DNA from: Pyrinomonadales bacterium
GTDB lineage: Bacteria > Acidobacteriota > Blastocatellia > Pyrinomonadales > Pyrinomonadaceae
Direction of reading: 5' to 3'
Length of the DNA stretch: 64,000 nucleotides
NCBI GenBank assembly: GCA_038235165.1
Contig: JBBSUG010000024.1
Location: forward strand, 2,430 to 66,429
Position 1 is the first letter of the stretch. Each line of letters begins with the position of its first letter. Of the stretch, positions 14,631-36,450 are shown piece after piece. The position numbers and the translations under genes were made by a program. Under the pieces are notes generated by a model. It ran no database searches. It had not been told where the DNA came from and saw nothing but the letters and a program-made list of their open reading frames with translations.

Positions 14631-14633
14631 TTC

Positions 14634-14649: not shown

Positions 14650-14653
14650 CTTT

Positions 14654-14893: not shown

Positions 14894-14943
14894 TTTATGT
14901 TATTCTCCTATGTGTGAATCAAATCATTCGTGGTTTGAAAGAG

Positions 14944-14985: not shown

Positions 14986-15295
14986 TAGTTCGTTCGATGT
15001 AGATTGCACAGAGCCGCGCGGCGGCGCGATGGCGGCACGGGAAGCCGTTTGCAAACGCTTTGCACTGACAAGTTCCGTTTGCCGTATAAATCTCGCTGGA
15101 AGTATCCGACATCATTAAAAGACTGTGTGAGTCGTGATCGTATGTCATATACGGATTCGATTCAATTTCGACCGTTGCCTTGGCAATCGCGTTAATCCAT
15201 CGTTGCCCGTTTTTCGATGCCGGGTTGATCTTTGCGATAGATTCGGCGGCAATTTGTCCTAAAACTTCGTGGTTGATCGTTGAAAATGTGTTCAT
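14981..15295 (-). CDS. SWIM zinc-finger protein
   Basis: CQCKAFANGFPCRH matches the CxCx(n)CxH SWIM signature. Confidence 0.65.
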   Translation of the reverse strand: MNTFSTINHEVLGQIAAESIAKINPASKNGQRWINAIAKATVEIESNPYMTYDHDSHSLLMMSDTSSEIYTANGTCQCKAFANGFPCRHRAAARLCAIYIERTK

Positions 15296-15366
15296 TGTTT
15301 TATTCCGTCCTTATTCGAGTTGGTGTTTCTACAAGTGCGGATTCCGCACTTGTAGAGGGTTTATGT

Positions 15367-15525
15367 TTAGTTGGCGTTGATGATTCGTTTGGCTTGTTTG
15401 AGAGCGTCACCGGTGAACTTATGCGCCCAAACTGATACGCCGTCCGCATCGTTGATAAATATTTGTCTGCCGTTGTAGCTTTCAAATACCGTGACTGTGT
15501 AACCTTTGTATGTAAAATTTTTCAT
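15367..15525 (-). CDS. Small hypothetical protein (52 aa, below the track cutoff)
   Basis: My own translation: MKNFTYKGYTVTVFESYNGRQIFINDADGVSVWAHKFTGDALKQAKRIINAN. GGAG upstream. Preferred over the overlapping 15300-15485 ORF. Confidence 0.35.
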   Translation of the reverse strand: MKNFTYKGYTVTVFESYNGRQIFINDADGVSVWAHKFTGDALKQAKRIINAN

Positions 15526-15580
15526 CGTTGCTAACTCCGTTTTTTAGATTCGCTAATTTCTTAACTTCACTAATAATACT

Positions 15581-15673
15581 ATTCTTTAGGGATAGCTATC
15601 AAGTCTTTAAGAATGATTTTAATTCTTTAGGGCTACTTTTTTATTCTTTATTGCACTTATATTATTCTTAGGG
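15581..15673. promoter_or_regulatory. Array of direct repeats ATTCTTTAGGG (operator-like) in the divergent switch region
   Basis: Copies at 15581-15591, 15622-15632, 15643-15653 (ATTCTTTATTG) and 15664-15673 (ATTCTTAGGG). The last three are spaced 21 bp apart. An inverted variant lies at about 15604-15614. Confidence 0.55.
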
Positions 15674-15687
15674 TATGATTGTAAAGT

Positions 15688-15888
15688 ATGAACAGTGGTG
15701 AACTTAAAAAAAGGCGTGTAAGCATTGGATTAACGCAGGCAGGGCTGGCTGAAAAAATTGGGGTTGTTCCGAATACGGTTTCCCGGTATGAAACTGATTC
15801 GCTCGAAATTCCTATTTATATGGAATTAGTTTTAGAGGCTCTGGAAAGTCGGAAAATAAAACAGCTTCAAGCGACATCTGAAAAATAA
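15688..15888 (+). CDS. XRE-family HTH transcriptional regulator (Cro/CI-like)
   Basis: LTQAGLAEKIGVVPNTVSRYE is the canonical HTH_3 motif. Confidence 0.8.
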   Translation: MNSGELKKRRVSIGLTQAGLAEKIGVVPNTVSRYETDSLEIPIYMELVLEALESRKIKQLQATSEK

Positions 15889-15892
15889 ATAT

Positions 15893-16075
15893 ATGAATAA
15901 AAAGCTATTCCCGGTTCAGGTCTTTATCTTAATCGTTTTAGGTGCAACCGGATTATTCCGATTCTCCGAGGGTGTGCGAACGGTTGACGTGATCGGATTA
16001 TTTGCAAGCGGTATGGTTTGCGGCGCGGCGTTGGTCTGGATCGTCGTCGCTCTCAAAGGTAAGTCGAAGCAATAA
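15893..16075 (+). CDS. Small two-TM membrane protein
   Basis: Two hydrophobic helices (VQVFILIVLGATGLF and GMVCGAALVWIVVAL). Lies 4 nt after the XRE gene. Confidence 0.5.
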   Translation: MNKKLFPVQVFILIVLGATGLFRFSEGVRTVDVIGLFASGMVCGAALVWIVVALKGKSKQ

Positions 16076-16150
16076 AAAAATAAAAAAAGCCGCCGGTTCT
16101 GACAAACCAGCGACTTCGATCTTTGATAACTAAATATCTAAATACCCTTT

Positions 16151-16166
16151 AAGCAAAAGCAGTCTA
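16151..16166. repeat. Right copy of the 16-bp inverted repeat (partner 4763-4778)
   Basis: AAGCAAAAGCAGTCTA. Confidence 0.85.
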
Positions 16167-16358
16167 TCAAATTCTTTTGACCGACTGCAACCGCCTGTAT
16201 CTGATAATGTATCTGTTACCTGTTACTTTGGAGTGATATGCAGTGACAAAAGATAGTCCTTTGTTCTTTGTATATCACTCTATAACACTTGGTAAGTATC
16301 AGTAAATAAAGGCTTAAAAGATTCCGGTAAACATTTTGTGTAGTCCTTTTCTTCAATA

Positions 16359-17330
16359 TTAAACTTCTTCAATTTTGGACAATTTCCTGACATCAATCGA
16401 AACTGAGTCTCCAGCTTCGGTTTTGTTGTAGAGACTGATAAATTTTGCGTTCCAGATGATTTCCGCCGGTTTGAATGATGTTCGGGTATGAACTGTCTGC
16501 GCGAAATCTTCGTCAATCGCCGTCATCAAAATCAGAATTTCAGCATCCGAATTAACCAATTCCTCGTGCGTGATGCCGTTGAGCGGACTTTCCTCGGTAA
16601 TCGGGTGAACGACCGTCCAGCCGAGCGGGAAGAAAGAAACTTTTTCTCGTTCCAAAACCAACGGCTCGAACCGGCGGACAACCTGCCCGTTTTCAGTAAT
16701 AAATCGTGCCAAGAAAACCTGCGCCGCAACTTCGATCAATTGGCTCGAACGCATATTCACCAGACGGAACATCAACGCCGTTCCGTTTTGGTAGGGAGCG
16801 ATAACGGCTCGTTCGCTGAAGAGGACGCGAGCCGTCGGGCGCGAAAAACGGGCAAAAAACATTCCCGTCACCAGGGCTTGCAACAAAATACTGCTAATTG
16901 ATTCGACCGTCACGAACGAGTTGGCGAGTGTGCCGACCGGTGCGATTGTCCCGTAGCCGATAGTGCCGAAAGTTTCTACGCTGAAAAAAAACGCCCGCAG
17001 AAAATGGCTGGTCATCGGCGGGTCGGTCGTTTCGACGATGGCATTTTCTCCGCACAGCATAAAAATTACGGCGAAAATCACATTGATGCTCAAATAAAGT
17101 CCGACGACCACAACGAGAAATTTCCACCACGACATCGTTAAAAGCAGATGATATAAATTTCTTCCGGCGAAACTTCTCAAACCTTTGCGCCGGACGTTAA
17201 AAGAACCGTCCTGATTGATAAATCGCAGACGGCTCTCGAGGGCGACGACCGAACCGAAGCCGAGATCGCGGTTGACTTCGTTGGCAAAGGCATCATTTGT
17301 AGTCATTTTATCGGGAATTTGATTGTGCAT
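16359..17330 (-). CDS. Inward-rectifier-type potassium channel (KirBac family)
   Basis: Selectivity filter TIGYG in ETFGTIGYGTIAP, two TM helices, and a beta-rich cytoplasmic C-domain. Confidence 0.85.
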   Translation of the reverse strand: MHNQIPDKMTTNDAFANEVNRDLGFGSVVALESRLRFINQDGSFNVRRKGLRSFAGRNLYHLLLTMSWWKFLVVVVGLYLSINVIFAVIFMLCGENAIVETTDPPMTSHFLRAFFFSVETFGTIGYGTIAPVGTLANSFVTVESISSILLQALVTGMFFARFSRPTARVLFSERAVIAPYQNGTALMFRLVNMRSSQLIEVAAQVFLARFITENGQVVRRFEPLVLEREKVSFFPLGWTVVHPITEESPLNGITHEELVNSDAEILILMTAIDEDFAQTVHTRTSFKPAEIIWNAKFISLYNKTEAGDSVSIDVRKLSKIEEV

Positions 17331-17529
17331 CGAAGTTATCGGTATCGCAAATTTTGCTTAATTATAAAATATAACAAATTTCGCGCTCCAAATTCTCTTG
17401 TCAACGGCAAAAATATCTGTTTAAATTTAAAGTCAGGGGAGTTTAATTTTTCAGTAGTGAGAAGCCAGGTTTTTGAGGGCAGGAAAGAAAGTCGGGAAAT
17501 GTTTGACGGAAATCCGCGCGCCCCCGAAA

Positions 17530-17919
17530 TTAGTTTACAAGGGATTTTAGATTAAGCAGTTCTTCGACCGTTTCCGTGAGAATGTCGAGGTCGTTGGGTT
17601 TCACCAGAAACTTTGTCGCGCCCGCGTCGAGCGCATTTTCGCCGTCAACATCGCGTGCCATTCCGGTAAAAAATACAATCGGCGTGATCTGATCGGTTTG
17701 ACGAATCTTTCGGCACAAATCGATACCACTCATTTCAGGCAGCCGAAAGTCGAGAATATACAAATCGAATGCTTTTTCGGCGATCAGTTTTAACGCTTCG
17801 GTTGCGGTTGAAGCCGCCGTCACGCGACATTTTTCATTCGCCGTGTGAACCATCAGTGTAACTAATTCGCAGGAGTCATCGTTATCATCAACACACAGAA
17901 TTTGCCGACAATCATCCAT
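17530..17919 (-). CDS. Stand-alone response regulator receiver protein
   Basis: ILCVDDNDD, phospho-acceptor context DLYILDFRLPEMSG, and FLVKP. Confidence 0.85.
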   Translation of the reverse strand: MDDCRQILCVDDNDDSCELVTLMVHTANEKCRVTAASTATEALKLIAEKAFDLYILDFRLPEMSGIDLCRKIRQTDQITPIVFFTGMARDVDGENALDAGATKFLVKPNDLDILTETVEELLNLKSLVN

Positions 17920-18077
17920 ATTTTTACACAGGAAATTACAGAAACAGATTTATTTTTTTACTAGAAAAAGATAACGAAATTTTATTTTTGACACAGTAAT
18001 TTTTGTTTGTCTGTAATGTATATTACAAATTAACAACACAGTCAAGATAAACTACCGGTCGCATAACTCAGCTAACT

Positions 18078-18896
18078 TCACACCGGTTTTTTACTTTCGA
18101 CGTTTCGCGGGGGTGAAGTCTCTTTTTGATAATCGGGTTTGTTTTGGGATACCGACGAAGCCGGATTAGGTTTCGGCTTGTTGTGGAAATCTTTCACTTC
18201 CTGTGGTTTGAGCCTTCGATAAGCACCTACGGGCAACAATTTATCGCTGATATGTCCGATAGAAATGCGCCGCAATTTGACGACCGAATTGCCGATTATG
18301 TCAAACATTTGGCGAATTTGCTGATTATGACCTTCGTGGAGCGTAATTTCATACCAGCCGTTTTTCTTGGTCGGATTTAGCTCTTTAATCTCGGCAGGGG
18401 CTGTCTTAAAACCGTCTTCGAGAAGAATGCCGCGCCGCAGTTTGTTGATCGCATTCTCGTTCGGTAAACCCTTCACCTTCACATTGTAAACTTTCGGGAT
18501 TTTTTTCGAAGATGCGACAAAATTTGTAAATTTTCCGTCGTTGGTAAGAATTATCAAACCTTCCGTATTGTAATCGAGCCGACCGACCGGGTGAAGTTTT
18601 CCAAACTGGGTTGGAATCAAATCAATTACCAATTTTCTGCCTTCCGGGTCGGCGGCACTCGACAAATAACCTTTCGGTTTATTGAGCAGAAAATAAAGGT
18701 CTTCGCGCTTTTCGAGCAGCGGATTAATCAGTTTGCCGCTCACTTTAATATGATCGGTTTCAGGATTAGCCTTGGTGCCGGGTTCGGTAATAATCTCGCC
18801 GTTGACGGTTACATCGCCGTCCGCAATCATTCGTTCCGCTTTGCGGCGCGAGGCGATACCCGCCTGCGCGATTAGTTTCTGAAGTCTTTCTTCCAT
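18078..18896 (-). CDS. rluB: 23S rRNA pseudouridine synthase, RsuA/RluB family
   Basis: S4 domain (RLQKLIAQAGIASRRKAERMIADGDVTVNG), catalytic GRLDYNTEGLIILTNDG, and a basic C-terminal tail. Confidence 0.85.
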   Translation of the reverse strand: MEERLQKLIAQAGIASRRKAERMIADGDVTVNGEIITEPGTKANPETDHIKVSGKLINPLLEKREDLYFLLNKPKGYLSSAADPEGRKLVIDLIPTQFGKLHPVGRLDYNTEGLIILTNDGKFTNFVASSKKIPKVYNVKVKGLPNENAINKLRRGILLEDGFKTAPAEIKELNPTKKNGWYEITLHEGHNQQIRQMFDIIGNSVVKLRRISIGHISDKLLPVGAYRRLKPQEVKDFHNKPKPNPASSVSQNKPDYQKETSPPRNVESKKPV

Positions 18897-18907
18897 AAGA
18901 AACAATT

Positions 18908-18935
18908 GTAAATGGTAAATGGTTAATGGTAAATA
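18908..18935. repeat. Four tandem heptamers GTAAATG
   Basis: GTAAATG GTAAATG GTTAATG GTAAATA, 12 nt upstream of the rluB start. Confidence 0.8.
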
Positions 18936-18979
18936 CGAAGAAGCGAATTCTGAATTTTTCGTTCATTTATCATTATTCT

Positions 18980-20329
18980 TTATTTCTCTCTCGGCAGCAC
19001 CGGCACGAATTTGTCCATCGAAGCGTTGATCTGCAAGTAAATCTGCGTTTCGCGCGGAATCAAAGTGCGCCAACCAGCCCCGCCGCGACGGATGTAACCG
19101 GCTAACTTTGCAGGATTTGAATTGTAGCCCGCCGACATCAATTCAGCAGGTGTGGCGATGCCGTTTTCAATCGCGTTGTAAATAGTCTCACTGGCAATTA
19201 AATCGCTCCAAGTCATCTGCATATAAAGCAGCATTGCCTCGGCAGCGTTGACGTGATCGCGCATTCCGTCAACAAAATCCGGCATCAGGTTGACGGCGTA
19301 ATACCGCGAACGAATCATCCGGTAGGTCGAAGGAATCATCTGCACCATTCCGCCCGCCCCGGCACTGCTGACCGAATAACGATATGTTTGTCCTTCGTTG
19401 AGAGCGTAAAGCGCAAAAATATCGTTGTAAATAACCGGATGCGCTTCTTTGCGAAAACGAAGATGGTCAACGTGTTCAACCACTGACAACCGCTCGGCAT
19501 TATCCGTCACCTGCGGTGAAATAAAAATACCTTTTCTCCGCAAATTCTCGCGTGCCAGGTCAATCGTATTTCGCACGTAAAGCCGTCCCGCGCTGACGAC
19601 TTCGGGCGTGACGATACCGGCGTGAGTCGAAATATAATAAGCGGTTTCCATATAAACTCCGTCGCGGACGACCGGATACTGTACGAGCAGCGGCAGGTGT
19701 GCGCGGTTTTCCGCGTCAATTACCATCACTGGCGTATTGACACCATTAACGCGAAGGATACGAATTTTAATGAACTTGCCGCCTTCGGTCGTCGTCATAA
19801 GTTCCGCATCGGGCGACAAAAATGCGTCCTTAGTCATCACGGTATAATCAATTTTGGCGGTTTCATAATCGTAAAAAGCCAAACGAACTACTTCAGTCAT
19901 CAAATAATTGGCGGTGATGGCGGTCGAAATCGGACGCGCCGTCATTTGCCGTTTGGCTTCGGCAATTCTCTTTTTGATTTCTTTAAAGCTTAGAGGTTTA
20001 TAAAACACGGGCGGCGGCGGCGTGTTAGCCGCCGGATAAGTTGCCGTGCCGAGATTAACAATATTTTGCAGCGGTGTCGGCACTGGTTTCGCCATTAGTA
20101 CCGGCGTTGACATCGGCATTGGTGTTGAAATCGGGGTTGGGGTTGGTGCCGGCAAATTATCCTTTGTAATCACGACGACATTTTTCGCCGGTGTCGGAGT
20201 TGGTGTCGGTGTCGGATTCATCAAAATACGGCTTCGCGTAAGTTTTTCAGTGGACGTATTCGACTGCGAAAATGCGGAAAAGGGAAGCAGAACGAAGACA
20301 CAGAATCCGATTAAAACTTTTAGTTTCAT
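18980..20329 (-). CDS. Secreted protein with C-terminal lytic-transglycosylase (SLT)-like domain
   Basis: Signal peptide, PTPTPTP linker, and SSAGAGGMVQMIPSTY resembling the SLT GLMQ motif. Confidence 0.5.
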   Translation of the reverse strand: MKLKVLIGFCVFVLLPFSAFSQSNTSTEKLTRSRILMNPTPTPTPTPAKNVVVITKDNLPAPTPTPISTPMPMSTPVLMAKPVPTPLQNIVNLGTATYPAANTPPPPVFYKPLSFKEIKKRIAEAKRQMTARPISTAITANYLMTEVVRLAFYDYETAKIDYTVMTKDAFLSPDAELMTTTEGGKFIKIRILRVNGVNTPVMVIDAENRAHLPLLVQYPVVRDGVYMETAYYISTHAGIVTPEVVSAGRLYVRNTIDLARENLRRKGIFISPQVTDNAERLSVVEHVDHLRFRKEAHPVIYNDIFALYALNEGQTYRYSVSSAGAGGMVQMIPSTYRMIRSRYYAVNLMPDFVDGMRDHVNAAEAMLLYMQMTWSDLIASETIYNAIENGIATPAELMSAGYNSNPAKLAGYIRRGGAGWRTLIPRETQIYLQINASMDKFVPVLPREK

Positions 20330-20574
20330 AATTGTTTTGCAGAGTTTGGAAATTGGCGGCGCGATTGCCGTTGAATATTATTGAAAATGCGAAATACTGG
20401 TGGTTCGCAATTATAAAGATTCGCTTATTAAACAAAAGGTTGTCAAATGATGAGGAATTAATTATAGTTCCAACAAGTTTTCGTTATGGATGGTTTAAGT
20501 TTGTCGTCGCGGTTGAATTACGGTATAAATAAAGTTTTTGTTGTCGGAACTAAAACAACAGGGACAGCTTTATT

Positions 20575-26073: not shown

Positions 26074-26718
26074 TTACTTGTCGCCGCCGGAAAATGGAAG
26101 CTGCATCGCCAGATCGAGCCAGCGTTTCTGCACTTCGACGTAATTGTTGACGGCTTGCTGCGCGAAATCCGCCACTGCCGACACCGGCGATGAATCGTCA
26201 ATTTTCAGCGTGTCTTTCATCGCATTAATTAATTGGGTATTTTTCCGGGTGACAAAATCGAGCCACGAATTTCGCATTTTTACGAGTGATTTGATACCCG
26301 GATTTGCGCCGTCCCCGGACACTTCACCGCCGGAATTTGCGAAATTATTGTTTGACTGAACGGCTTGCAAAATTTGCTCGCTCTGTTGAACGGCAATCTC
26401 TGACCATCTTTTCTGCGCTTCGACAAACCCTTCGATACCTTGTTTGACCCAATCGGACAAAGCATCGGTCGGCGCAGTTTCCCTCATTGCCGTCATTTTA
26501 TTGACGGTCTCGATCAGCAGCGCATTCTGTTGGGCGGCGTTTCCAAACCACGCCTTTTGCGCTTCAATGAGTTGGTCTAAAACTTTCTGCGCCCAATCGT
26601 TCGCAGGTGCGGCGGTTGATTCATTTTTTGGGTAAGTCGTCTTTTTTCTGGTGCTGCCGCTGGTCTTTCCGGTAGTTTTTCCAGTAGTTTTTCGTTTGGT
26701 AGATTTGGTGTCAGCCAT
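26074..26718 (-). CDS. Phasin-like protein with three internal repeats and a basic N-terminus
   Basis: Repeats EAQKAWFGNAAQQ, EAQKRWSEIAVQQ and EVQKRWLDLAMQ. Lys/Thr-rich N-terminus. Adjacent to phaR. Assignment rests on context. Confidence 0.45.
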   Translation of the reverse strand: MADTKSTKRKTTGKTTGKTSGSTRKKTTYPKNESTAAPANDWAQKVLDQLIEAQKAWFGNAAQQNALLIETVNKMTAMRETAPTDALSDWVKQGIEGFVEAQKRWSEIAVQQSEQILQAVQSNNNFANSGGEVSGDGANPGIKSLVKMRNSWLDFVTRKNTQLINAMKDTLKIDDSSPVSAVADFAQQAVNNYVEVQKRWLDLAMQLPFSGGDK

Positions 26719-26802: not shown

Positions 26803-27186
26803 TTATTTGGTCGCTACCTTCGCCTGTGTTGCCGCATTGTCAACGATTTCTGTGCCGCCCGCGACGACATTGTTCATCGTGTTTTTAACCGCGTCGCCCG
26901 CCGAATTGATCGTTCTTTCGCCGGTGCCGGAGAACAAATTGATCCACTGACGATTTAACTTGGACATATTGTCAAAGTAATTTCTTGCCACATTCACGCC
27001 GCTTTCCTGCATATCGAACCCGACTTGAACCATATTCTGCATATAGCCGTTGGCGATTTCCGCTGTTTTCACCGTGCTTTCAAACATCACATTTGCCGTT
27101 TTTTGCGAAAGCTCAATCGCTGAATTAACACTCTCAACTGCCTGTCCCGTCATTGTTTCCGCCGCTTCTTTTGTATTCTGCTTCAT
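26803..27186 (-). CDS. Phasin-family-like small helical protein
   Basis: 127 aa, all-helical and amphipathic, divergent from phaR. Assignment rests on context. Confidence 0.45.
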   Translation of the reverse strand: MKQNTKEAAETMTGQAVESVNSAIELSQKTANVMFESTVKTAEIANGYMQNMVQVGFDMQESGVNVARNYFDNMSKLNRQWINLFSGTGERTINSAGDAVKNTMNNVVAGGTEIVDNAATQAKVATK

Positions 27187-27506: not shown

Positions 27507-27980
27507 ATGGCGAAAAGAAAGAAAGAATCGAGTGATGTGCTGGTTATCAAGCGTTACGGCAATCGACGGCTTTACAACACAGAGACGCGCAGTTACGTCA
27601 ACTATCAGGATTTAATCAAATTAGCGCGGGCTGGCGAAGATTTTCAGGTGATCGAATCAAAAACAAAGGATGACGTGACAAAATCAATCTTGATTCAACT
27701 GATTTTGGAAGAGGAAAAGAATAATCACAACATTATGCCGACACCTTTTCTTTTTCAGCTTTTGCGTTCAAACGAAGAATCGTTGCAGGATTTTTTTAAA
27801 AACCATTTGACGACGAGTCTTGCGGCATATATGAAAACTAAAGAAGAGTTCGACAGACGCTTTCGCAGCGTGCTGGAAATGGCGATTCCGAACGCGCAGA
27901 CGTGGGAAAAACTGATTCCCGGCGCGGAAATTATGCGCGAACTTTTGACGGGCGAGAAGAAGGAAAAGGATGAAGGATAA
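27507..27980 (+). CDS. phaR: Polyhydroxyalkanoate synthesis repressor PhaR
   Basis: [27 protein letters not shown] plus the [10 protein letters not shown] block are hallmark PhaR N-terminal motifs. Confidence 0.85.
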
Positions 27981-28045
27981 ACAAGAAAGAAATTTCGCGG
28001 TTTATCTGTTCCGGCTTCTCTTATTTCTCATTTACCCGGCAACTC

Positions 28046-28798
28046 TTAATTATTCGATAAACGATCAGCAATGATGCGATAAACCTGCGGATTGACGACT
28101 AAACCGACGTGCGTTCCCGACACTTTATAATTATTCGTCGGCTCGTCGTCAACGCAAACCTGCCAGTCAACGATGCCGTCGGTTTCCGTGTAAACGGCGG
28201 TTTGCCGAATCTCTGCCGGAAAATAAGTGTCCCACGCTCTGACGGTTTCACAGTCGCAGCCGCCGCCGAAACATTCGGGGCGTTCGTTGCTGGTTTCGCG
28301 CAGAATGCGGGCGCGAACTTGATTTGCCGTTTTCATCACCGCCGGATGCGAACGAATGCCGCGAAACGGTGAGCCGAGCGCGATTACCGAGCGCACCATT
28401 TCCGGGCGTTGGACAGCCGCCGAACGCGCCAGAATACCGCCCAGACTGTGACCGATCAAATGGACGGGTTTGCCGGTTTTATCTTCGGCTTTTTCAATCG
28501 TCGCCACTAATTTTTTGCCGAGTTTGTCCAAACAGTCGGCGTTCCAACCGATGCCGGACAGATATGGTTTGTAGCCGATGCGCCAGAGCCAAAAATACAA
28601 CTCGCCGAAATAATAATCGGTTCCCATAAATCCGGGAACCAGCACGACCGCCGAACCGTCGCCGCGTTTCGCCCCGAATCCGTAATAAATCGCCGAAGCC
28701 CGCAGCGAAAGCCAGTCAACTCCCCACAATGCTTCACGCAAAATTGGTCGGTCAACCGTTTTGCTGTCCTTAAATGTGTAACTGCCCGTGTTTGTCAT
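28046..28798 (-). CDS. Alpha/beta hydrolase (lipase/esterase-like)
   Basis: Nucleophile elbow HLIGHSLGG. Lies 14 nt downstream of the WS/DGAT gene. Confidence 0.75.
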   Translation of the reverse strand: MTNTGSYTFKDSKTVDRPILREALWGVDWLSLRASAIYYGFGAKRGDGSAVVLVPGFMGTDYYFGELYFWLWRIGYKPYLSGIGWNADCLDKLGKKLVATIEKAEDKTGKPVHLIGHSLGGILARSAAVQRPEMVRSVIALGSPFRGIRSHPAVMKTANQVRARILRETSNERPECFGGGCDCETVRAWDTYFPAEIRQTAVYTETDGIVDWQVCVDDEPTNNYKVSGTHVGLVVNPQVYRIIADRLSNN

Positions 28799-28812
28799 AA
28801 GTTTATTATCGC

Positions 28813-30486
28813 TTATTTGGAGCCGGTTGCGCTAGTAGTTTTTTGCTCCGCATTCGATTTCGGGGCAGTTTTTTTGACAGCGGCTGTCGGTTTCGTCGCT
28901 TCTGCGCTTTTTGATGCTTTCGGTGCTTTGATTTTTGCCGCCGCCGGTTTCTTGTTGGCGGCGACTTTCGGTACGGCTTTTTCTTTGGAAACAGCTTTCG
29001 AGACTGCCTTTGCCGCCGTTGGCGTTTTGGTTTTGGCAGTATTTCGCGGGGCGACTTTTTTAATCGGCGGCGAATCGGCTCCTTCCACTCCTGCCGCCGT
29101 TAATAATTCTGCAAATGACTCGTTGAGACAATCGCGCAGAATTTCGACATCGGGCATCGCCTGCACGTCGGCAGTCAGACCGAACGTGATTTTTTGATCG
29201 TAAGTCAAAATCGCGCAGCCGCAACCGACCGCATAACCGACCGGAACATAGGGATAATAGCCGAGCATTTTTTTGCCGAGCGTGTAAAGCGGAACCTGCG
29301 GACCCGGCACATTCGTCGCCACCATATTGACGGCGGGCATCGGCATTGAGGCAAGCGCACCGGCGAGAGCCTGCACCGGCGCAGGCAAAATTCCCATTAA
29401 CGCCGAAAACAAACTGACACCTTCCGCCACGCGCCCGCCTTTGAGAGCCGCTGTTTTGCGGTTGATGTAGCGAAATCGTTCCGCCGGATCGGGCAGATCA
29501 AGCGGGATTTCAACCGGCAGAATCGAAACCAGATTGCCGAGTGTGCCGTGCTGATCTGCCTGCCGCAAACTCACCGGAACCATAAACCGAATACTGCGAT
29601 TCGCCGTCGGCTGTGCGTGACTTTCGACGTATTTAGCAACCGCACCCGACAAAATCGTCAATGCCGCGTCGTTGACAGTACCGCCGAGAACAGCGCGAAT
29701 CGCGCGAACATCGGCAAAAGAGAATTCGCTCCAAACCAACCGCCGTTCGCCCGAACACTGACGGTTAAACGGCAAAATCGCCGCCGGAGTCACCATTCCC
29801 GACAGTTCGCCGCCGATTTTAGTCATCGCGTCGCGCGTCGGCTGTTCGATAAAAGCCTGCGTTAAATTCAGCAGACCGTTTTGAAACTCCATCCAGCGGT
29901 TCATTCCTTCTTCCATTCCGCCAAGCAGGGAATCGAAAAACTGGCGCGTCGGGTCTAATTTTTCGGTGCGCGGGTGCGTCGTTTCCGGCTTTATCGGAAT
30001 TCCGGCATTCGGCGAAATATCAAGAATAATTTTGATCAGATCAATACCCGACATTCCGTCCACCATACAATGATGAATGCGGGCGACCATCGCCGAATTG
30101 CCGCCTGCAAGTCCGTAAATCCAGAAAATATCCCAGAGCGGTTTGTCCCGTTCCATCACGGGCGTAAAAAGTTTGCTCGACAGTTCGACAAGTTCCCGTT
30201 CGCCGCCGGGAGCGTCAATTTGGAGTTTGAAAATATGTTTGCGAATATCGAAATGCGCGTCGTTTTCCCACGTCGGATGCGCTAGATTAAAAGGGTCGAA
30301 TTTGACGATTTGCTGATAACGCGGAATCAAGTGCATTTTCGCGTCCATCATCGCAACAAAATCCTCAAACGGAACTTCGCCCTCGAAAAAATGAACGCTG
30401 CCGATGTGCATCGGTGCTTCTTTTTTCTCGAAATAGAGAAAACTCGAATCAACGGTCGTCAATCGGCGGTTTAGTGTTTTTGACAT
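28813..30486 (-). CDS. Wax ester synthase / acyl-CoA:diacylglycerol acyltransferase (WS/DGAT) with Lys/Ala/Pro-rich C-terminal tail
   Basis: Active-site [10 protein letters not shown] (HHxxxDG) and a ~460-aa WS/DGAT body. The last ~95 aa are [32 protein letters not shown]... Confidence 0.85.
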
Positions 30487-30513
30487 AATTTTCTGTTCTA
30501 CGGCACGTTGATT

Positions 30514-33500
30514 TTAATTAAATGCCCAAACATCGAGCCGGTAGCGATTGTCGGCGGTCAATTCGTTCAACCAATTTTCAGCTTCGGCAATGCTTTTTCC
30601 AGTTTTCTCAATATAAATAGCGGCAAATGTGCGGCGCACGTCGGGAGCCATTCGACCGGCGTCGCCGCAGATATAGATTATCGCACCGGCTTCGAGCAGT
30701 TGCCAAACTTCATCACGGCGCGTGTACATTTCGTTTTGAACGTAGCATTTTTCGTGTCCTTCAACGCGCGAAAAGCAGGTTGAAAGCTGCACGATTCCTT
30801 GTTTTTCAAATTCGCGCAGTTCGTCTTCGTAGATAAAATCCTGTTGCGGATGACGGCAGCCGAAAAATAAAAGTGCGTCGCCGATTTCTTTTCCCTGCTT
30901 TTTAAGTTGATGGCGTTCCTGTAAAAATCCGCGAAACGGCGCGATCCCCGTTCCTGGTCCGATCATAATAATCGGAGTCGTCAAATCGTCCGGCAGACCA
31001 AAAACGGCTTTCGTATCTTTGACGAAGGCGTAAATCTGGCTCGACTCGTTTTTGTGAGCGAGATAATTGGTGCAAACGCCGCGAAATGTGCCGTGACCGG
31101 AACACGCCGAACTTTCGACGACGGCGACCGTAATGCTCGTAAGTTGCGGATTTTCCAGTGGCGACGACGAAATCGAATAATAGCGCGGGCGCAGCGGCGG
31201 CAGTGTTTCGAGATAAATTTCAAACGGCAGAGCGCACGCCGGATATTCTTCGAGCAAATCCAGCGCGGATTTTCTCTTGTCCAAAATTTCTTCGCGGTAC
31301 CGCGCCGCCGTCTGTTCGTCATCGCCGACGAGCGCGAGCATCTGAATTTTGTGCGGTGGGCAATCGGTATATTCGGCGAGCGTTTTGATTTGCTGGCGCG
31401 TGGCGACTTCCTGCAATTCGACGTAATCGCGCAGCAGCCGATAGACGGAAATCGTCTGTTCGATTGGCAGAAAAGTTTTGCGGTTCGCCTGTTTCCGCAG
31501 TCGAATATATGTTTCGCGCTCGAAACCGAAGCGGGCGGCGACTCGTTCAATGAGATTTTCGCTGTTTTGCGGAATCACGCCGAGATGGTCGCCGACATTG
31601 TAAGAAACCGTTTCCGGCAATTCGAGTTCGATGTGCCGGGTCGAGCGTTCCGACGGATGTTCGCCGGTTTTTTTGAGCAGTTCGCGGTTGGTCAGCACTC
31701 GCAATGATTTCGCGCCGAACGAATCAACAAAACCGCTCATTTGCGCTCCCGGCACGATTTCGAGTTTGTAAAGTTGCTTTGAACCTTCGTCAACCTCGAA
31801 TTGCAAATTTAATTCCTTGCCGATGAGTTTTCGCAGCGGCTGAAACCAATTTTGAAATTGTCTTTCAAAATCGTCGCGGGCATCGCCTTCGCCGTGCGCG
31901 TAAAAACGCCGTGCGCCGAGTTGCGCCAAACGCTCGTCAAAAAAACGCGGCACGGCTTGAAAAGTCGAAGCCCAATCCCGATTTCCGCATCCGAAAACCG
32001 CATAAGTTACGCCGTCGAGCGATTGATTCGTATTTTTCAGCCAGTCGTAGAATGCGGCGGCATTGTCCGGCGGCGCACCGTTGTAAGACGACGCGGCGAT
32101 AAACGTCAGCCCGTCCTTCGGCAAACGTCCGGCGTAATCATCAAGCGCGGCGATTTTCACGGCAAACCCGTTTTCCTCCGCATCCTGCGCGATGCGGCGG
32201 GCGATTTCCTCAGCCGTTCCCATATTCGAGCCGTATAAAACCAGCAAAGGAGTATTGTGTTTAGTGCTTTGTCCTTTGTCCTTTGTCTCCGGTTTGGCGG
32301 TTATCTTATTGTCGAAAGTATCTCTTGGAGAACTGGGGACTAAGGACAAAGCACTAAGGACTGTTGATGGACGAGTTCGCACTTTGATCTTCAAGCCTTC
32401 CGGCTTCATCGTCAGCGTTTCCTTGATTTTCAGGTCAATGTAATTGGTGTGATTAATCAGTTCAAAACGCTGCAAAATCATCCCGATCACGAGCGTCGCT
32501 TCCTGAATTGCAAACTGCCGCCCGATGCACGCCCGTTGCCCGTTGCCGAACGGTTTGTAAGCGTTCGGCGGCAGCGAGGCTTCGTGTTCCGTCGTGAAAT
32601 TGTCGGGGTTAAACACTTCCGCGTTCTCGCCCCAAACGGACGGGTCACGGTGCAGCATCGGCAGCAAAACGTTGATTTGATGATCACGTTTAATTTTATA
32701 TTTGCCGCCGAGAATCGTGTCTTCGTAAGGCACGAGCGCGAACGCTGGAGCGGTCGGGAACAGCCGCAGAGTTTCCTTCAAAATCTGCCCAATATAAGTT
32801 AGTTGATTGACTTGCGCGTAAGTCGGCTGCTGTGAATAATCGCGTCCTAAAACACGGTCAACTTCTTCGTAAGCTCGCGCCAGCACGTCCGGGCTTTTGA
32901 GCAGTTCGTAAATCACGAACGAGAGCATCCCGCTGGTTGTTTCGTGTCCGGCAATCAGAAAAGTAATGACCTGATAACGAATGTTCAAATCGTCGAGCCG
33001 TCCGCCGGTTTTTTTGTCCACGCCGGACAACATATAACTCAATAAATCGTGTTTTTCAACCGAATCTGCGCTGTCTGCCCGTCGTTCTTTGATGATGCGG
33101 TCAACGATTTCATTCATCCCGTTGATATCTTCCTGAAACAGGCGGTCGCGTTTGTGCTGCACCATTTTTTCGCCCGGCATATCGCGCAATTCGTCCATCG
33201 AAGTCGAAAGCGCGTTCGCCATCTGCCGGACAAAAGGATGTTCCGCATCGTGATAAAACGAATTAAACCGATAGCCGAAACCGCACAATCCGATAGTGTC
33301 AACCGTTAGACTGGTCATATCGCGCACAACATCAATTTCTTCGTCGGCGTTCAGACGCGCCCATTTGGAAATCATCTGTTCGGCGATGTCGAGCATCATC
33401 GGATGATAGCCGAGCATCGCATTGTGGCTGAAATTCGGCAGCAGAATATTGTGCGCTTTCGACCAATTCGGCTCCTGAGTTTTCGCGGTGAAAAGCCCGT

Positions 33501-33747
33501 CACCCGCAAATCTTCGCACGAGTCCGAGTGCGCCGCGAATCGTTTTATCAAAGCGTTTTTCGTCGGACAATTCGTTGACCAATTCCTGCCCGGACACGAT
33601 AATAACGACCCGCTTGCGAAAAACCATCCGGTAAATCGGACCGTATTCGCGGGCGAGACGAATCATATCCTGCACCGGTTCGCCCGCACTCAAATCGAGC
33701 ATATTGCCGAGCAGAAATTTTTGCGGCGGTTGCGGAATTCGCTCCAT
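30514..33747 (-). CDS. Self-sufficient cytochrome P450 fused to NADPH-P450 reductase (CYP102 / P450-BM3-like)
   Basis: Heme loop FGNGQRACIGRQFA, FMN domain NTPLLVLYGSNMGTAEE, FAD/NADPH motifs RYYSISSSP and GPGTGIAPFRGF. 1077 aa. Confidence 0.95.
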   Translation of the reverse strand: MERIPQPPQKFLLGNMLDLSAGEPVQDMIRLAREYGPIYRMVFRKRVVIIVSGQELVNELSDEKRFDKTIRGALGLVRRFAGDGLFTAKTQEPNWSKAHNILLPNFSHNAMLGYHPMMLDIAEQMISKWARLNADEEIDVVRDMTSLTVDTIGLCGFGYRFNSFYHDAEHPFVRQMANALSTSMDELRDMPGEKMVQHKRDRLFQEDINGMNEIVDRIIKERRADSADSVEKHDLLSYMLSGVDKKTGGRLDDLNIRYQVITFLIAGHETTSGMLSFVIYELLKSPDVLARAYEEVDRVLGRDYSQQPTYAQVNQLTYIGQILKETLRLFPTAPAFALVPYEDTILGGKYKIKRDHQINVLLPMLHRDPSVWGENAEVFNPDNFTTEHEASLPPNAYKPFGNGQRACIGRQFAIQEATLVIGMILQRFELINHTNYIDLKIKETLTMKPEGLKIKVRTRPSTVLSALSLVPSSPRDTFDNKITAKPETKDKGQSTKHNTPLLVLYGSNMGTAEEIARRIAQDAEENGFAVKIAALDDYAGRLPKDGLTFIAASSYNGAPPDNAAAFYDWLKNTNQSLDGVTYAVFGCGNRDWASTFQAVPRFFDERLAQLGARRFYAHGEGDARDDFERQFQNWFQPLRKLIGKELNLQFEVDEGSKQLYKLEIVPGAQMSGFVDSFGAKSLRVLTNRELLKKTGEHPSERSTRHIELELPETVSYNVGDHLGVIPQNSENLIERVAARFGFERETYIRLRKQANRKTFLPIEQTISVYRLLRDYVELQEVATRQQIKTLAEYTDCPPHKIQMLALVGDDEQTAARYREEILDKRKSALDLLEEYPACALPFEIYLETLPPLRPRYYSISSSPLENPQLTSITVAVVESSACSGHGTFRGVCTNYLAHKNESSQIYAFVKDTKAVFGLPDDLTTPIIMIGPGTGIAPFRGFLQERHQLKKQGKEIGDALLFFGCRHPQQDFIYEDELREFEKQGIVQLSTCFSRVEGHEKCYVQNEMYTRRDEVWQLLEAGAIIYICGDAGRMAPDVRRTFAAIYIEKTGKSIAEAENWLNELTADNRYRLDVWAFN
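32261..32357. repeat. 16-bp perfect inverted repeat inside the P450 interdomain-linker coding region
   Basis: TTAGTGCTTTGTCCTT (32261-32276) pairs with AAGGACAAAGCACTAA (32342-32357). The left arm continues as CTTTGTC repeated three times. Confidence 0.9.
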
Positions 33748-33760
33748 AAAAGTAATTATG

Positions 33761-33824
33761 AATTACGAATTTCAAATTACGATTTCTATCGAATCCTGAC
33801 ATTCGTAGTTTGAAATTCGTAATT
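33761..33824. terminator. Long hairpin (22-bp stem, 1 mismatch) between the GNAT gene and the P450 gene
   Basis: AATTACGAATTTCAAATTACGA pairs with TCGTAGTTTGAAATTCGTAATT. The arms contain the duplicated heptamer ATTACGA. The right arm end overlaps the first base of the GNAT stop codon. Confidence 0.6.
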
Positions 33825-34390
33825 TAAAAAGTCAGTCCCGTGACATCGTAAGTCATTACGACCAAATCATTTGTACGGTTATTGCGGTCAATTACGAAAT
33901 CAGCGAGCAGTGCTTCAGCGTTGAAACCCAATCGCTCGAAAACGGCAATCGCGCTCTTTTGACCGGCAGCCATTCGTGCGACGATTTTCTGCAAACCGAA
34001 CCCTTCGGCAACACTGAAAATCTCGCTTGCCAGCAGATTTCCCAAACCCAAACCACGCGCTTCGGGACTGACCAATAATTGAATCTCGCCGAGATGCCGC
34101 GTCCACGTCAGATTATTGCGAATCAGCGTACCGTGTCCGAGCAGTTTCCCGTTCGCTTCGGCGAAAATCGTCACTACGCGGTTCGTCTCCAAATCGCTTA
34201 CCCACGCGTCAACCGCTTCCCGTTCAGTGATGTCCACCGACAAAAACAGCAAATCGTCGGCGGGCAGCGAACGCGCAAATGCTAACAGCGCGTCGCGGTC
34301 AGCAGGCTGCATCAAACGCAGCGTGATTTTCCGGTCTTTCAGCGTCGCCGTCTGCGGGTAATGTTTCTTTGAAACTGATGTTTTAGCCAT
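33824..34390 (-). CDS. GNAT family acetyltransferase
   Basis: RGLGLGNLLASE acetyl-CoA motif. Confidence 0.75.
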   Translation of the reverse strand: MAKTSVSKKHYPQTATLKDRKITLRLMQPADRDALLAFARSLPADDLLFLSVDITEREAVDAWVSDLETNRVVTIFAEANGKLLGHGTLIRNNLTWTRHLGEIQLLVSPEARGLGLGNLLASEIFSVAEGFGLQKIVARMAAGQKSAIAVFERLGFNAEALLADFVIDRNNRTNDLVVMTYDVTGLTF

Positions 34391-34477
34391 TAGTTCTCCA
34401 GTCTGTTTTTAAAAGTTAGGTCGGGGAATTATATATGCGAACGGGAACTTGAAACAAATGCAGAAAATAATTTGATT

Positions 34478-34518
34478 AATAACCGGAGCGTAAGCGTATC
34501 GCTTGCGCTCCGGTTATT
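34478..34518 (-). terminator. Terminator hairpin (18-bp stem with one G-U pair)
   Basis: AATAACCGGAGCGTAAGC / GCTTGCGCTCCGGTTATT, downstream of the radical SAM gene. Confidence 0.65.
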
Positions 34519-34563
34519 GAATTTTCACTGAATAACTAATCTAAAACTTTGCCGTTTGAATCA

Positions 34564-36450
34564 TTAAACAGCAACAGATAAACTCCGCGGCTTTCTCAAA
34601 CTCTGCAATTGCACGAGTCCTGCCGGCGCATCAGCCAGCCACGTTGTCGGGCAAACGCCGCAGGTGGTGCATTTTTCGACTGCCGGACACGGTTTTGAAG
34701 AAAGCGAGGCTTGCGATTTTTCGTGTTCGGTTTTCAAAAAATCAAAAGATAATCCCGTATCAACAATTGACCATGGCAAAAATTCGTCGTAACTGCGATT
34801 GCGCGAAGTGTGAAAAGCCGCGTCAATGCCGGTTTCACGTAATGCTTCCTTCAAATTTCCTTTGTTTCTCGCGGCTGATTCGATAACTCTCGAAATAGTG
34901 CGGTCGCCGGAAGAAAACAGAGCCTGTTCGTGGGCGATTCGTGCGCTCATTGCGCGGACTTCGACGTTCGGGATTTTCGCTAAATTTTTGCTAACCCATT
35001 TCAGACGGTTTTTTAATTCCTTTTCATCGCACACCGCATCCCACTGGAACGGCGTGTTCGGTTTCGGCACGAGTCCGTTTAATGACGGAATGATTTTCCC
35101 GGCGCGTCCGAATCGTTTTCCGGCTTCGAGCATTCGGTCTTTAATGCGCTCGACCAATACGAGCATTTCTTCCAAATCTTCCTGCGTTTCCGTCGGCAAT
35201 CCGACCATTAAATAAAGTTTGACGGTCAGCATTCCCCGATCAAACACCGCGCCGCAGATGTCCACGATTTCGTCGTTCGTCAAATTTTTGTTGATAACGC
35301 GGCGCAGTCTGTCCGAGCCGGTTTCGGGCGCAACGGCGATTTGCTGATCGTTCGATTCGACGAGCGCGTCGAGTAATTCTTCGGAAATTTGGTCTAAACG
35401 CAGCGATGAAACGGTAATTTTATACTCCATTTTTCGCAATTCACTTAGAATCGTCGAGATTTCCGGGTGATCGCAAACAGCTGTCGAAACGAGTCCGATT
35501 TTGTTGGTTTTGCTGCGCCATTCGCTCGCCTTTGCCAAAATATCCCGTGCCGGAACGACGCGCGGCGGATAGTAATTGTAACCCGCCCAACAAAAACGAC
35601 AGCCCTGCGAACAGCCGCGCGAAATTTCAATCAATAATCTGTCGCCCATTTCCGCTCCCGGCGACCAAACGGCGGTTGACGGTGCGAAAACGTCCTGATT
35701 CATCAGGTAATCAATCACTTCGACTTCGTTGCGTTTGATTGCGCGGCGCAAAGTTCCTTCTTTCGGATTCGCGGCGGCAAGTGCGCGTCCGACTCGTTTT
35801 GGCACGCCTTCTTCGGTCGGAATATAATCGAAAACCGTTCCGTCGTCGTTGTAGATCACGTTGTAAAGCGACGGAATATAAAAGCCGCGCCCGATTTTGG
35901 CGAGATTGAGCAGAATATCTTCTTTATTGCCGTGTTCCAAAATCGCGTCAACCAATTGAAACGCGAGAATTTCGCCTTCGCCGACGGCGATAATGTCAGT
36001 GAAATCGGCAATTGGTTCGGGATTCAAAAAAGAAGCCGCGCCGCCCATCACGATTAGCGGATGAAAATGATTTCTGTCTTTCGACCAAACTGGAATCTGT
36101 GACATTTGCAGCATTCGCGCCATATTCAGATAATCAGTTTCAAACGAAATCGAAAATGCGACGACATCGAAATCTTTGATCGGCGTTTGTGTTTCCAGCG
36201 AAAGCAACGGCGTGCGCGATTTTTCGTATTCGCGCATTTCAAAATCGTCGGGCAGAAAAACTCTCTCGCACGAAACTTCGGGGATTTTGTTGAAAAGTTC
36301 GTACATCGTGTGGAGTCCGAGATTCGCCATTCCGACGGCGTGAGTGTTCGGGTAACACAGTGCAATGCGGAGCTGCGCGCCGTGCTTGATCGTCCAGCCT
36401 TCTTCTTGTTCTAACTTCTTCTTGTAACTTTCGACTATCTTTTTGCTCAT
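34564..36450 (-). CDS. B12-binding-domain radical SAM protein
   Basis: N-terminal Rossmann-like B12-binding region and the CxxxCxxC cluster in ISRGCSQGCRFCWAG. 628 aa. Confidence 0.8.
   Translation of the reverse strand: MSKKIVESYKKKLEQEEGWTIKHGAQLRIALCYPNTHAVGMANLGLHTMYELFNKIPEVSCERVFLPDDFEMREYEKSRTPLLSLETQTPIKDFDVVAFSISFETDYLNMARMLQMSQIPVWSKDRNHFHPLIVMGGAASFLNPEPIADFTDIIAVGEGEILAFQLVDAILEHGNKEDILLNLAKIGRGFYIPSLYNVIYNDDGTVFDYIPTEEGVPKRVGRALAAANPKEGTLRRAIKRNEVEVIDYLMNQDVFAPSTAVWSPGAEMGDRLLIEISRGCSQGCRFCWAGYNYYPPRVVPARDILAKASEWRSKTNKIGLVSTAVCDHPEISTILSELRKMEYKITVSSLRLDQISEELLDALVESNDQQIAVAPETGSDRLRRVINKNLTNDEIVDICGAVFDRGMLTVKLYLMVGLPTETQEDLEEMLVLVERIKDRMLEAGKRFGRAGKIIPSLNGLVPKPNTPFQWDAVCDEKELKNRLKWVSKNLAKIPNVEVRAMSARIAHEQALFSSGDRTISRVIESAARNKGNLKEALRETGIDAAFHTSRNRSYDEFLPWSIVDTGLSFDFLKTEHEKSQASLSSKPCPAVEKCTTCGVCPTTWLADAPAGLVQLQSLRKPRSLSVAV

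Follow-up and report, generated by a model that had tools for sequence, protein, structure and literature searches.

CYP102 genes lie beside a WS/DGAT acyltransferase and a lipase-like hydrolase in Blastocatellia and Bradyrhizobium: a conserved lipid-ester gene cluster with a possible role in hydroxy-fatty-acid esterification

In a 64,000-nt stretch of DNA from a Pyrinomonadales bacterium (Acidobacteriota, Blastocatellia; GenBank assembly GCA_038235165.1, contig JBBSUG010000024.1, positions 2,430 to 66,429), which we refer to as the window, three adjacent genes on the minus strand encode a CYP102-type self-sufficient P450 of 1077 aa with a heme domain fused to a diflavin reductase (30514..33747), a WS/DGAT-family O-acyltransferase of 557 aa assigned with Pfam and TIGR02946 (28813..30486), and a lipase-like alpha/beta hydrolase of 250 aa identified from its GHSLGG motif, its sequence and an AlphaFold model (28046..28798). 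An earlier reading of this DNA (the original prediction) had described three co-oriented genes with gaps of 27 and 14 nt and no intervening hairpin, and the open reading frame (ORF) coordinates confirmed this arrangement: 27 nt separate CYP102 from WS/DGAT and 14 nt separate WS/DGAT from the hydrolase gene, both gaps are too short to hold a terminator, and the sole terminator-like match near a junction is a weak 6-bp stem at 30538-30524, inside the 3′ end of CYP102. Single-strand order, short gaps and no internal terminator found make up an operon-type layout. The proposal that these three genes form a closed operon did not hold, however. Upstream lies a gene for a GNAT N-acyltransferase of 188 aa (33824..34390, minus strand; Pfam Acetyltransf_1), and downstream lie a PhaR-like regulator with a PHB_acc_N DNA-binding domain (27507..27980, plus strand, convergent with the hydrolase gene), a small conserved helical protein, o127 (26803..27186, minus strand), and a conserved helical repeat protein, o214 (26074..26718, minus strand). 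All four are conserved syntenic partners, so that the unit exceeds the three genes first recognised.

The original prediction had also held that a strong hairpin closes off the GNAT gene from CYP102. The hairpin itself is real: an AT-rich structure on the minus strand (33756..33829; arms 33756-33782 and 33803-33829) folds at -24.3 kcal/mol (z -5.15), a stability that none of 200 shuffles reached, and has no adjacent U-tract. Its motif is present solely at this site and in the closest relative (locus L001; loci are cited by such numbers where they need to be told apart), and in the next relatives, L002 and L088, GNAT abuts CYP102 at a distance of ~10 nt with no hairpin. For this reason the hairpin is not the edge of the conserved unit, and we also rejected it as a dispersed repeat or general boundary; attenuator, processing site and protein-binding palindrome are candidate roles. 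A GC-rich palindromic hairpin of 19-20 bp (34477..34519) is the likely terminator that limits the unit upstream, and a TATAAT box seen by reading between it and the GNAT start (34433-34428) is one that we only infer to be a promoter. Given these two features ahead of GNAT and the ~10-nt spacing of GNAT and CYP102 in relatives, the transcription unit most likely runs from GNAT, probably its first gene, through the AT-rich hairpin to CYP102, WS/DGAT and the hydrolase gene, with that hairpin internal and lineage-specific. The GC-rich hairpin lies 3′ of the gene directly upstream of GNAT, which encodes a B12-binding radical S-adenosylmethionine (SAM) protein with Radical_SAM_N2 and Radical_SAM domains (34564-36450) that scored 428.8 on TIGR03960, under the cutoff of 462.3. 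We rejected this gene as a member of the unit, since tblastn found it in 0 of 160 related loci and the strong terminator-like hairpin stands between it and GNAT.

The window P450 carries the Pfam domains p450 (E 1.9e-87), Flavodoxin_1, FAD_binding_1 and NAD_binding_1, and its residues 3-1075 align to the full-length P450 BM3 structures 8dmg and 8dme at E=0. Its heme domain is identical to that of BM3 at 243 of 448 aligned positions (54%), an identity that places it in CYP102 under the nomenclature rule of >40% identity to a CYP102 member. The Cys-ligand motif, FGNGQRACIG, aligns to the BM3 motif (FxxGxRxCxG), and the equivalents of BM3 T268 and, of its fatty-acid-binding residues, R47 and F87 are kept, with Ile in place of Y51. 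CYP102A1 is an enzyme that hydroxylates fatty acids at the omega-1 to omega-3 positions and epoxidises unsaturated fatty acids. Within the gene, the linker between the heme and reductase domains (32261-32357, codons ~464-495) encodes a very stable RNA hairpin with 21-nt arms that are 95% complementary (-37.7 kcal/mol, z -8.5). Among orthologues the linker is hypervariable: even that of L001 is unrelated, although the two CYP102 proteins are 86% identical overall. The hairpin may mark a palindromic insertion that kept the reading frame, or may serve as a site of translational pausing.

The families that had been assigned to the second and third genes from their HHxxxDG and GxSxG motifs were likewise borne out. 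The acyltransferase contains WS_DGAT_cat (PF03007, E 1.3e-50) and WS_DGAT_C (PF06974, E 1e-26), scores 341.2 bits on TIGR02946 against a cutoff of 309.95, and has its active-site motif as HHCMVDG at residues 138-144, invariant in 16 orthologues (the corresponding motif of the Afipia paralogue is HHACIDG). It ends in a low-complexity, Lys/Ala/Thr/Pro-rich tail of ~90 aa (residues ~470-557; 28813-29080) reminiscent of histone H1. Among orthologues this tail varies in sequence and ranges from 0 to ~170 residues; a role in tethering the enzyme to inclusions or to nucleic acid is possible. In the hydrolase, the nucleophile motif GHSLGG is joined by S118, D207 and H230, all invariant among orthologues. 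By sequence, the PDB entries closest to it belong to the family I bacterial triacylglycerol lipases (E 2e-9 to 1e-7), a similarity limited to residues ~50-148, and its homologues bear the JGI label “triacylglycerol lipase.” The AlphaFold model has a compact alpha/beta-hydrolase fold (pLDDT 83.7); Foldseek matched it to the lipases 1ex9 and 9g8u (TM 0.59-0.60) and to Lip_vut1 (TM 0.77 on target), and generic esterases ranked as high. Structure thus gave no specific enzyme class, the Foldseek matches being generic alpha/beta hydrolases and lipases at TM ~0.5-0.6 that do not discriminate. We also rejected a family I “true” lipase: the protein has 250 aa against ~285-320 aa for the secreted enzymes, aligns only in part, and has no signal peptide evident on reading its N-terminus. 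We think it best called a lipase-like cytoplasmic serine hydrolase. Proteins of the window type also have invariant cysteines (C89, C176, C181 and C183) and a nearly invariant C215; the CxxxxCxC segment sits in a low-confidence loop of the model and is deleted in the Bradyrhizobium/Afipia paralogue, and the cysteines may form a metal site or redox switch.

The names of homologues, among them MAGs (metagenome-assembled genomes) labelled Pyrinomonadaceae, point to class Blastocatellia of the Acidobacteriota for the window. Neighbouring genes were called with tblastn and ORF-level blastp in a set of 80 genome loci centred on relatives 34-79% identical to the window WS/DGAT. Homologues of the lipase-like hydrolase were present in 67/81 WS/DGAT-centred loci, and a GNAT homologue adjoined or lay near WS/DGAT in 54/81, across phyla. 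GNAT, WS/DGAT and hydrolase form a widely conserved, older core found in several phyla, often with the PhaR-like gene, o214 and o127 close by. The order of the core genes differs between Blastocatellia, Pyrinomonadaceae, Bryobacterales, Acidobacteriaceae, Thermoanaerobaculia, Chloroflexota and other labelled lineages.

In the window's Blastocatellia clade, a P450 gene lies between GNAT and WS/DGAT in 24 of the 28 assessable loci, and this slot holds CYP102 in 13 loci and a stand-alone P450 in 11. Compact forms have the P450 directly upstream of WS/DGAT and co-oriented with it, at gaps of 10-35 nt. The stand-alone enzyme, of 452 aa, occurs in a sister Blastocatellia clade (L007, L009-L011, L013, L014, L017, L021, L022, L024 and L058; in L011 at 8604-9962), has no adjacent redox partner and is ~27% identical to the CYP102 heme domain. 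Two CYP102 loci are nested among loci with this alternative P450, from which it follows that the slot changed occupant more than once. The conservation of synteny that the original prediction had named as its check was found: CYP102, WS/DGAT and hydrolase are linked in the window's clade and, beyond it, the same three kinds of gene occur in other orders in Bradyrhizobium/Afipia, in MAGs labelled Chloroflexia or Methylomirabilia, and in other metagenome lineages.

A second set, of 80 metagenome loci, was centred on CYP102, with a query alignment headed by the sequence of L030 (from a MAG labelled Chloroflexia). WS/DGAT lay at most 6 kb from CYP102 in 54/80 of these loci, was clearly missing in 1, and could not be assessed in 25 with flanks that were too short; most of the 54 positives are closely related Bradyrhizobium-type loci that count as one lineage. 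Most positives share a second architecture, lipase-like hydrolase - WS/DGAT - epoxide-hydrolase-type gene - CYP102, followed by an opposite-strand hydrolase and then by PhaE-like - class III-like PhaC - GNAT - Phasin_2 - DUF445, with all genes on one strand save the hydrolase after CYP102. The cluster-member names for this architecture are Afipia, Bradyrhizobium (including B. diazoefficiens) and Beijerinckiaceae, and Bradyrhizobium assemblies with 9-Mb contigs show the order WS/DGAT - Abhydrolase_1 - P450/reductase - ... - PhaC_N - GNAT - Phasin_2 - DUF445 - lipase-like hydrolase. Compared with the window proteins, the Bradyrhizobium/Afipia WS/DGAT is 26-28% identical, the hydrolase 30-36% and CYP102 53-56%. 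Both types of WS/DGAT stand in tandem in Thermoanaerobaculia loci and are therefore paralogues, so that CYP102 has been joined to two acyltransferase/hydrolase pairs. Further arrangements were WS/DGAT-hydrolase-OsmC-epoxide hydrolase convergent with CYP102 and a short-chain dehydrogenase/reductase (SDR) gene (L030), CYP102 convergent with DUF445-WS/DGAT-hydrolase (L065, L093, L096 and L111), WS/DGAT directly upstream of CYP102 (L141 and L142), and epoxide hydrolase-CYP102-hydrolase (L098 and L100). The neighbourhood of WS/DGAT also includes PhaE/PhaC genes in L051, L053 and L054; in Binatia loci, the gene after WS/DGAT is PhaC-like.

Within the Bradyrhizobium-type cluster, the epoxide-hydrolase-type protein has HGWP and GHDWGG motifs, another hydrolase resembles macrolide esterases, and GNAT overlaps the PhaC-like gene by 4 nt in Bradyrhizobium/Afipia. 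The PhaC-like protein keeps the GYCFGG cysteine box while scoring 325 bits against the class III cutoff of 365, and is therefore divergent. In B. diazoefficiens the cluster corresponds, by inference, to blr2879-blr2888. There, blr2881 is annotated “epoxide hydrolase” and shares with blr2882 a “post-symbiotic” expression pattern in senescing nodules (PMC6321122); blr2882 is the bifunctional P450 reductase, i.e., CYP102A6 (PMC10888616 supplement; PMC9281120), and its protein was detected by proteomics (PMC10888616 supplements). The phaC paralogue is blr2885 (PMC4029623; PMC10888616), with poor or absent expression under the conditions tested (PMC10888616), and blr2887 is phaP5, a Phasin_2 gene (PMC10888616). 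In a phaR mutant of this species, phaP5 was up 3.77-fold and blr2880, which from its position in the cluster would encode the WS/DGAT, was down 2.0-fold (PMC10888616 supplements). Soil and root metatranscriptome contigs cover Bradyrhizobium-type genes and span the junction from WS/DGAT to the epoxide-hydrolase-type gene.

Three further observations concern the Bradyrhizobium-type loci. The intergenic region between the epoxide-hydrolase-type gene and CYP102 in L106 (9787-10014) had a metatranscriptome contig depth of 17-192, against ~0-25 elsewhere, with many reads running into unrelated sequence at 9832 and 9864, a pattern suggestive of a repeated element, or of a small RNA in high abundance, shared with other genomic sites. 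In one Bradyrhizobium assembly (L163, 3514-6751), CYP102 was called as overlapping ORFs for a 553-aa P450 and a 533-aa reductase, a frameshift that is either a pseudogene or a sequencing error. In L161-L163, a second lipase-like hydrolase gene follows DUF445 (12864-13634), and a paaX/paaABCDE phenylacetate operon with a thioesterase and an AMP-binding ligase abuts the cluster (13797-20366).

Of the window's other conserved neighbours, the PhaR-like protein matches PHB_acc_N at E 2.5e-23 (82.3 bits against a threshold of 25), scores 106.2 on TIGR01848, just under the cutoff of 109.45, and is syntenic in ~33 WS/DGAT loci. The o127 protein matches no Pfam family; in Pyrinomonadaceae-type loci its gene shares synteny with those for PhaR and o214. 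The o214 protein begins with a stretch rich in Lys and Thr and has an A/VQK(R)W motif in three repeats; its gene immediately precedes GNAT in the majority of WS/DGAT loci from Blastocatellia, Pyrinomonadaceae and “Chloroflexia” MAGs. The PhaR neighbourhood and the helical repeats raised the idea that o214 and o127 are phasins, which we rejected: Pfam Phasin_2 matches had E 0.5-0.9, with one orthologue at 1.9e-4 yet under the gathering score, and hhalign of both proteins against Bradyrhizobium-type Phasin_2 phasins gave probabilities <1%. With the Afipia PhaC-like protein as query, tblastn found no polyhydroxyalkanoate (PHA) synthase in the 64-kb window or within ~10 kb in Blastocatellia loci, and none was present among the window ORFs scanned with Pfam, which covered ~16-54 kb only; among the scanned ORFs near the cluster there was also no gene for a fatty acyl-CoA reductase that could supply wax alcohols.

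Elsewhere in the window, G+C content is 50-54% from the hydrolase to the radical SAM gene (28000-36000) and ~40-43% in the flanks (22-28 kb and 36-50 kb), for which gene-specific composition and an older horizontal acquisition are both possibilities. A homologue of inward-rectifier potassium channels (IRK and IRK_C domains; 16359-17330), ~11 kb from the cluster, appears unrelated to it.

Taken together, these loci represent a conserved multi-gene lipid-ester module in which P450 enzymes were recruited repeatedly to an old core: CYP102 in the window's lineage, in Bradyrhizobium/Afipia and in several others, and a CYP170/183-like P450 in the sister Blastocatellia clade. It is very likely that CYP102 is functionally linked to the WS/DGAT/hydrolase pair, because their association recurs, rearranged, in at least two securely identified phyla; the exchange of P450 families at one position also points to such a link. 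That the adjacency merely reflects inherited gene order or chance is very improbable: shared ancestry alone could hold the genes together within the Blastocatellia clade, and the loci tolerate unrelated ORFs inserted between P450 and WS/DGAT, but this would not account for an association that recurs with paralogous pairs and on both strands, takes at least five gene orders and spans no fewer than two securely identified phyla, nor for two different P450 families in the same slot.

As to what the linked enzymes make, our best hypothesis for the product is hydroxy-fatty-acid esters, resembling estolides or fatty acid esters of hydroxy fatty acids (FAHFAs), and we put at somewhat under one half (about 45%) the probability that the CYP102 module makes such acyl-oxy-acyl esters, which would be stored in inclusions and mobilised by the hydrolase. 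In this scheme, CYP102, with NADPH and O2, would hydroxylate long-chain fatty acids at a subterminal position, or would epoxidise them where an epoxide-hydrolase-like gene adjoins. The new hydroxyl would be the acyl-acceptor site, which WS/DGAT would esterify with acyl-CoA through its HHxxxDG motif. The resulting acyl-oxy-acyl neutral lipids, possibly oligomeric, would collect in cytoplasmic inclusions, PhaR would tie expression to the state of the inclusions, and the lipase-like hydrolase would cleave the stored esters upon mobilisation. WS/DGAT enzymes such as Acinetobacter AtfA take many alcohols, diols included. We favour a synthetic role for three reasons: the compact forms place a co-oriented P450 directly upstream of the acyltransferase; the Bradyrhizobium neighbours (epoxide-hydrolase-type, PhaC-like, phasin and esterase-like hydrolases) fit the building of esters or polyesters; and no fatty acyl-CoA reductase gene for ordinary wax alcohols is nearby. 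A wider claim seems to us somewhat unlikely, namely that soil bacteria of at least two phyla hold an undescribed storage or envelope lipid consisting of (oligo-)esters of subterminally hydroxylated or epoxide-derived dihydroxy fatty acids, kept in PhaR-controlled inclusions; its builders would be a dedicated CYP102 and WS/DGAT, with or without an epoxide hydrolase and a PhaC-like synthase, and dedicated lipase-like hydrolases would mobilise it.

Several findings weigh against the hydroxy-fatty-acid ester reading. Most Pyrinomonadaceae-type, Bryobacterales, Acidobacteriaceae, Binatia and other loci have the core without any P450, and within the P450-bearing clade itself L012, L025, L026 and L056 have none (decayed P450 remnants were sought in these four, and none appeared even at E <= 1). 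Because so many lineages lack it, and because the sister clade has another P450 family in its place, we regard the P450 as accessory to the core. The stand-alone P450 of that sister clade is closest not to fatty-acid hydroxylases but to the terpenoid-oxidising CYP170/CYP183, of CYP170A1 and pentalenene-oxygenase types. In many relatives 0.5-1.2 kb of unrelated small ORFs lies between P450 and WS/DGAT, and co-transcription is therefore not universally kept. BM3 Y51 is Ile in the window enzyme, and R47 is not kept in the Afipia orthologue. In the CYP102-centred set, beside the narrow lineage basis of its positives, L095 is clearly without WS/DGAT, and L084, L085, L089-L091 and L124 are without it on the visible side. 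Some MAG taxon labels were taken from records and may be wrong. Near-identical DNA to the window locus occurs in soil, rhizosphere and biocrust metagenomes, and the sequencing runs that matched the window were all DNA from these sources, with no RNA run found.

The spacer between P450 and WS/DGAT in relatives is a hotspot for inserted small genes. Some of the inserts encode four-helix-bundle proteins (motif SYRDLIVWQKAMDL) like those of 23S rRNA intervening sequences, others look like toxin-antitoxin pairs that have a zinc-ribbon partner, and a PIN-like pair is also among them. Insert sites are L010 4135-4524, L013 9457-9921 and L021 9506-9940; L006 9431-9971, L016 4112-4652 and L023 1440-1988; and L019 9342-9983.

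The alternative that survives best, unlikely in our view but deserving serious weight, is that the cluster is an ordinary triacylglycerol/wax-ester module whose lipase frees fatty acids, which CYP102 (with the epoxide hydrolase where one is present) then hydroxylates for detoxification or subterminal oxidation, the genes sharing a fatty-acid signal. The widespread occurrence of the GNAT-WS/DGAT-hydrolase core without a P450 is consistent with this, as are the resemblance of the hydrolase to triacylglycerol lipases and the SDR gene that adjoins CYP102 in L030. BM3 has been proposed to detoxify unsaturated fatty acids, and this too would suit such a module. The “post-symbiotic” pattern of blr2881/blr2882 in senescing nodules (PMC6321122) also speaks for it. 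Among the annotated cluster neighbours, though, there is no Baeyer-Villiger monooxygenase or other dedicated subterminal-oxidation gene; the Bradyrhizobium loci do have an alcohol-dehydrogenase gene at their far end, past the paa operon. Nor does a degradative P450 explain why a co-oriented P450 is repeatedly placed directly upstream of the acyltransferase at gaps of 10-35 nt, and the PhaC-like and phasin genes beside the P450 and epoxide-hydrolase-type genes would be left without a role.

Those same PhaC-like and phasin genes are what recommends a PHA-type granule metabolism, in which CYP102-derived hydroxyacyl units would be activated and then polymerised, or would prime polymerisation, through the PhaE/PhaC-like proteins, WS/DGAT would cap or acylate the hydroxyl ends of the polymer and the alpha/beta hydrolases would depolymerise the product, a bacterial counterpart of a cutin-like polyester. 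In Bradyrhizobium/Afipia, CYP102 stands between WS/DGAT-epoxide hydrolase and PhaE/PhaC-like-GNAT-phasin, and the divergent PhaC paralogue (325 vs 365 bits) retains its catalytic Cys box. The PhaE/PhaC genes near WS/DGAT in L051, L053 and L054, the PhaC-like gene after WS/DGAT in Binatia and the syntenic PhaR of the window's lineage point the same way. We nevertheless judge this quite unlikely: neither the window nor the Blastocatellia loci (to ~10 kb) gave a PHA synthase in tblastn with the Afipia PhaC-like query, o214 and o127 are not demonstrable as phasins, and we know of no PHA synthase that polymerises long-chain subterminal hydroxyacyl-CoAs.

Few P450s have been studied and engineered as much as those of the BM3 type, yet to our knowledge the natural role of the CYP102/BM3 family has long been without a clear assignment. 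A conserved partnership of CYP102 with a storage-lipid acyltransferase and hydrolases provides a concrete, testable physiological hypothesis, and the genetically tractable B. diazoefficiens USDA110, where CYP102A6 (blr2882) and the genes around it are present, allows direct testing. If the ester-forming role of CYP102 is true, the family would gain a defined physiological function, and a hydroxy-fatty-acid ester product would be a new bacterial lipid class. This would matter for carbon storage by rhizobia and by the abundant Acidobacteriota of soils, and for the interpretation of soil neutral-lipid biomarkers; it would also supply natural enzymes with which to make estolides, compounds of value as lubricants and bioactive lipids. 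From the links to PhaR, phasin and PhaC-like genes it further seems that these bacteria integrate the storage of polyesters and of neutral lipids at the genetic level.

Among known systems, the window P450 shares with CYP102A1 (P450 BM3 of Priestia megaterium) and CYP102A6 the joining of heme and FMN/FAD/NADPH reductase in a single polypeptide, and is unlike BM3 in having Ile for Y51 and an unrelated interdomain linker that encodes a stable RNA hairpin. We know of no Bacillus CYP102 gene that lies beside a WS/DGAT or lipase gene. The window WS/DGAT shares both domains and the HHxxxDG motif with Acinetobacter baylyi AtfA and Mycobacterium Tgs1. Tgs1 works with the lipase LipY, a pairing of synthesis and mobilisation whose logic the window WS/DGAT and lipase-like hydrolase match; the window system differs from those of AtfA and Tgs1 in its partners (the conserved GNAT, PhaR and helical proteins and a recurrent P450) and in the unusual Lys/Ala-rich tail of its acyltransferase.

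Eukaryotic omega-hydroxy routes offer an analogy, not a homology. Petunia stigma estolides are made with CYP86A22, mammalian O-acyl-omega-hydroxy fatty acids and acylceramides with CYP4F22 and wax synthases/PNPLA1, and plant cutin with a P450, an epoxide hydrolase, acyltransferases and a lipase-fold cutin synthase. The shared logic is a hydroxyl made by a P450, an ester made by an acyltransferase, and transacylation or hydrolysis by a lipase-fold enzyme, and the Bradyrhizobium cluster, like the cutin pathway, includes an epoxide-hydrolase-type gene. The enzyme families are unrelated save for the P450 oxygenases, and hydroxylation in these routes is terminal, whereas here it is expected to be subterminal. 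With the PHA granule system of B. diazoefficiens, the likeness lies in the PhaR-like gene that adjoins the window module and in the phaP5 and class III-like PhaC genes inside the Bradyrhizobium/Afipia cluster; the window departs from it in having no PHA synthase by tblastn with a PhaC-like query, a PhaR-like score just under the NCBIfam cutoff and helical proteins that are not demonstrable phasins. The barley Cer-cqu wax cluster combines a polyketide synthase, a lipase/carboxyl transferase and a P450 (PMC5620584), and so resembles the present loci in clustering lipid-ester genes, a P450 and a lipase-fold enzyme among them; its setting is a plant, its chemistry that of beta-diketones, and homology goes no further than the superfamily level. 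As the original prediction had supposed, we found no description of the combination as a unit in the literature searched, which covered CYP102 with wax ester synthase, wax esters of Blastocatellia, blr2879-2886, and CYP102 in Bradyrhizobium. Set beside these systems, the locus is best described as a conserved lipid-ester gene cluster that brings known enzyme families together in a combination new to that literature.

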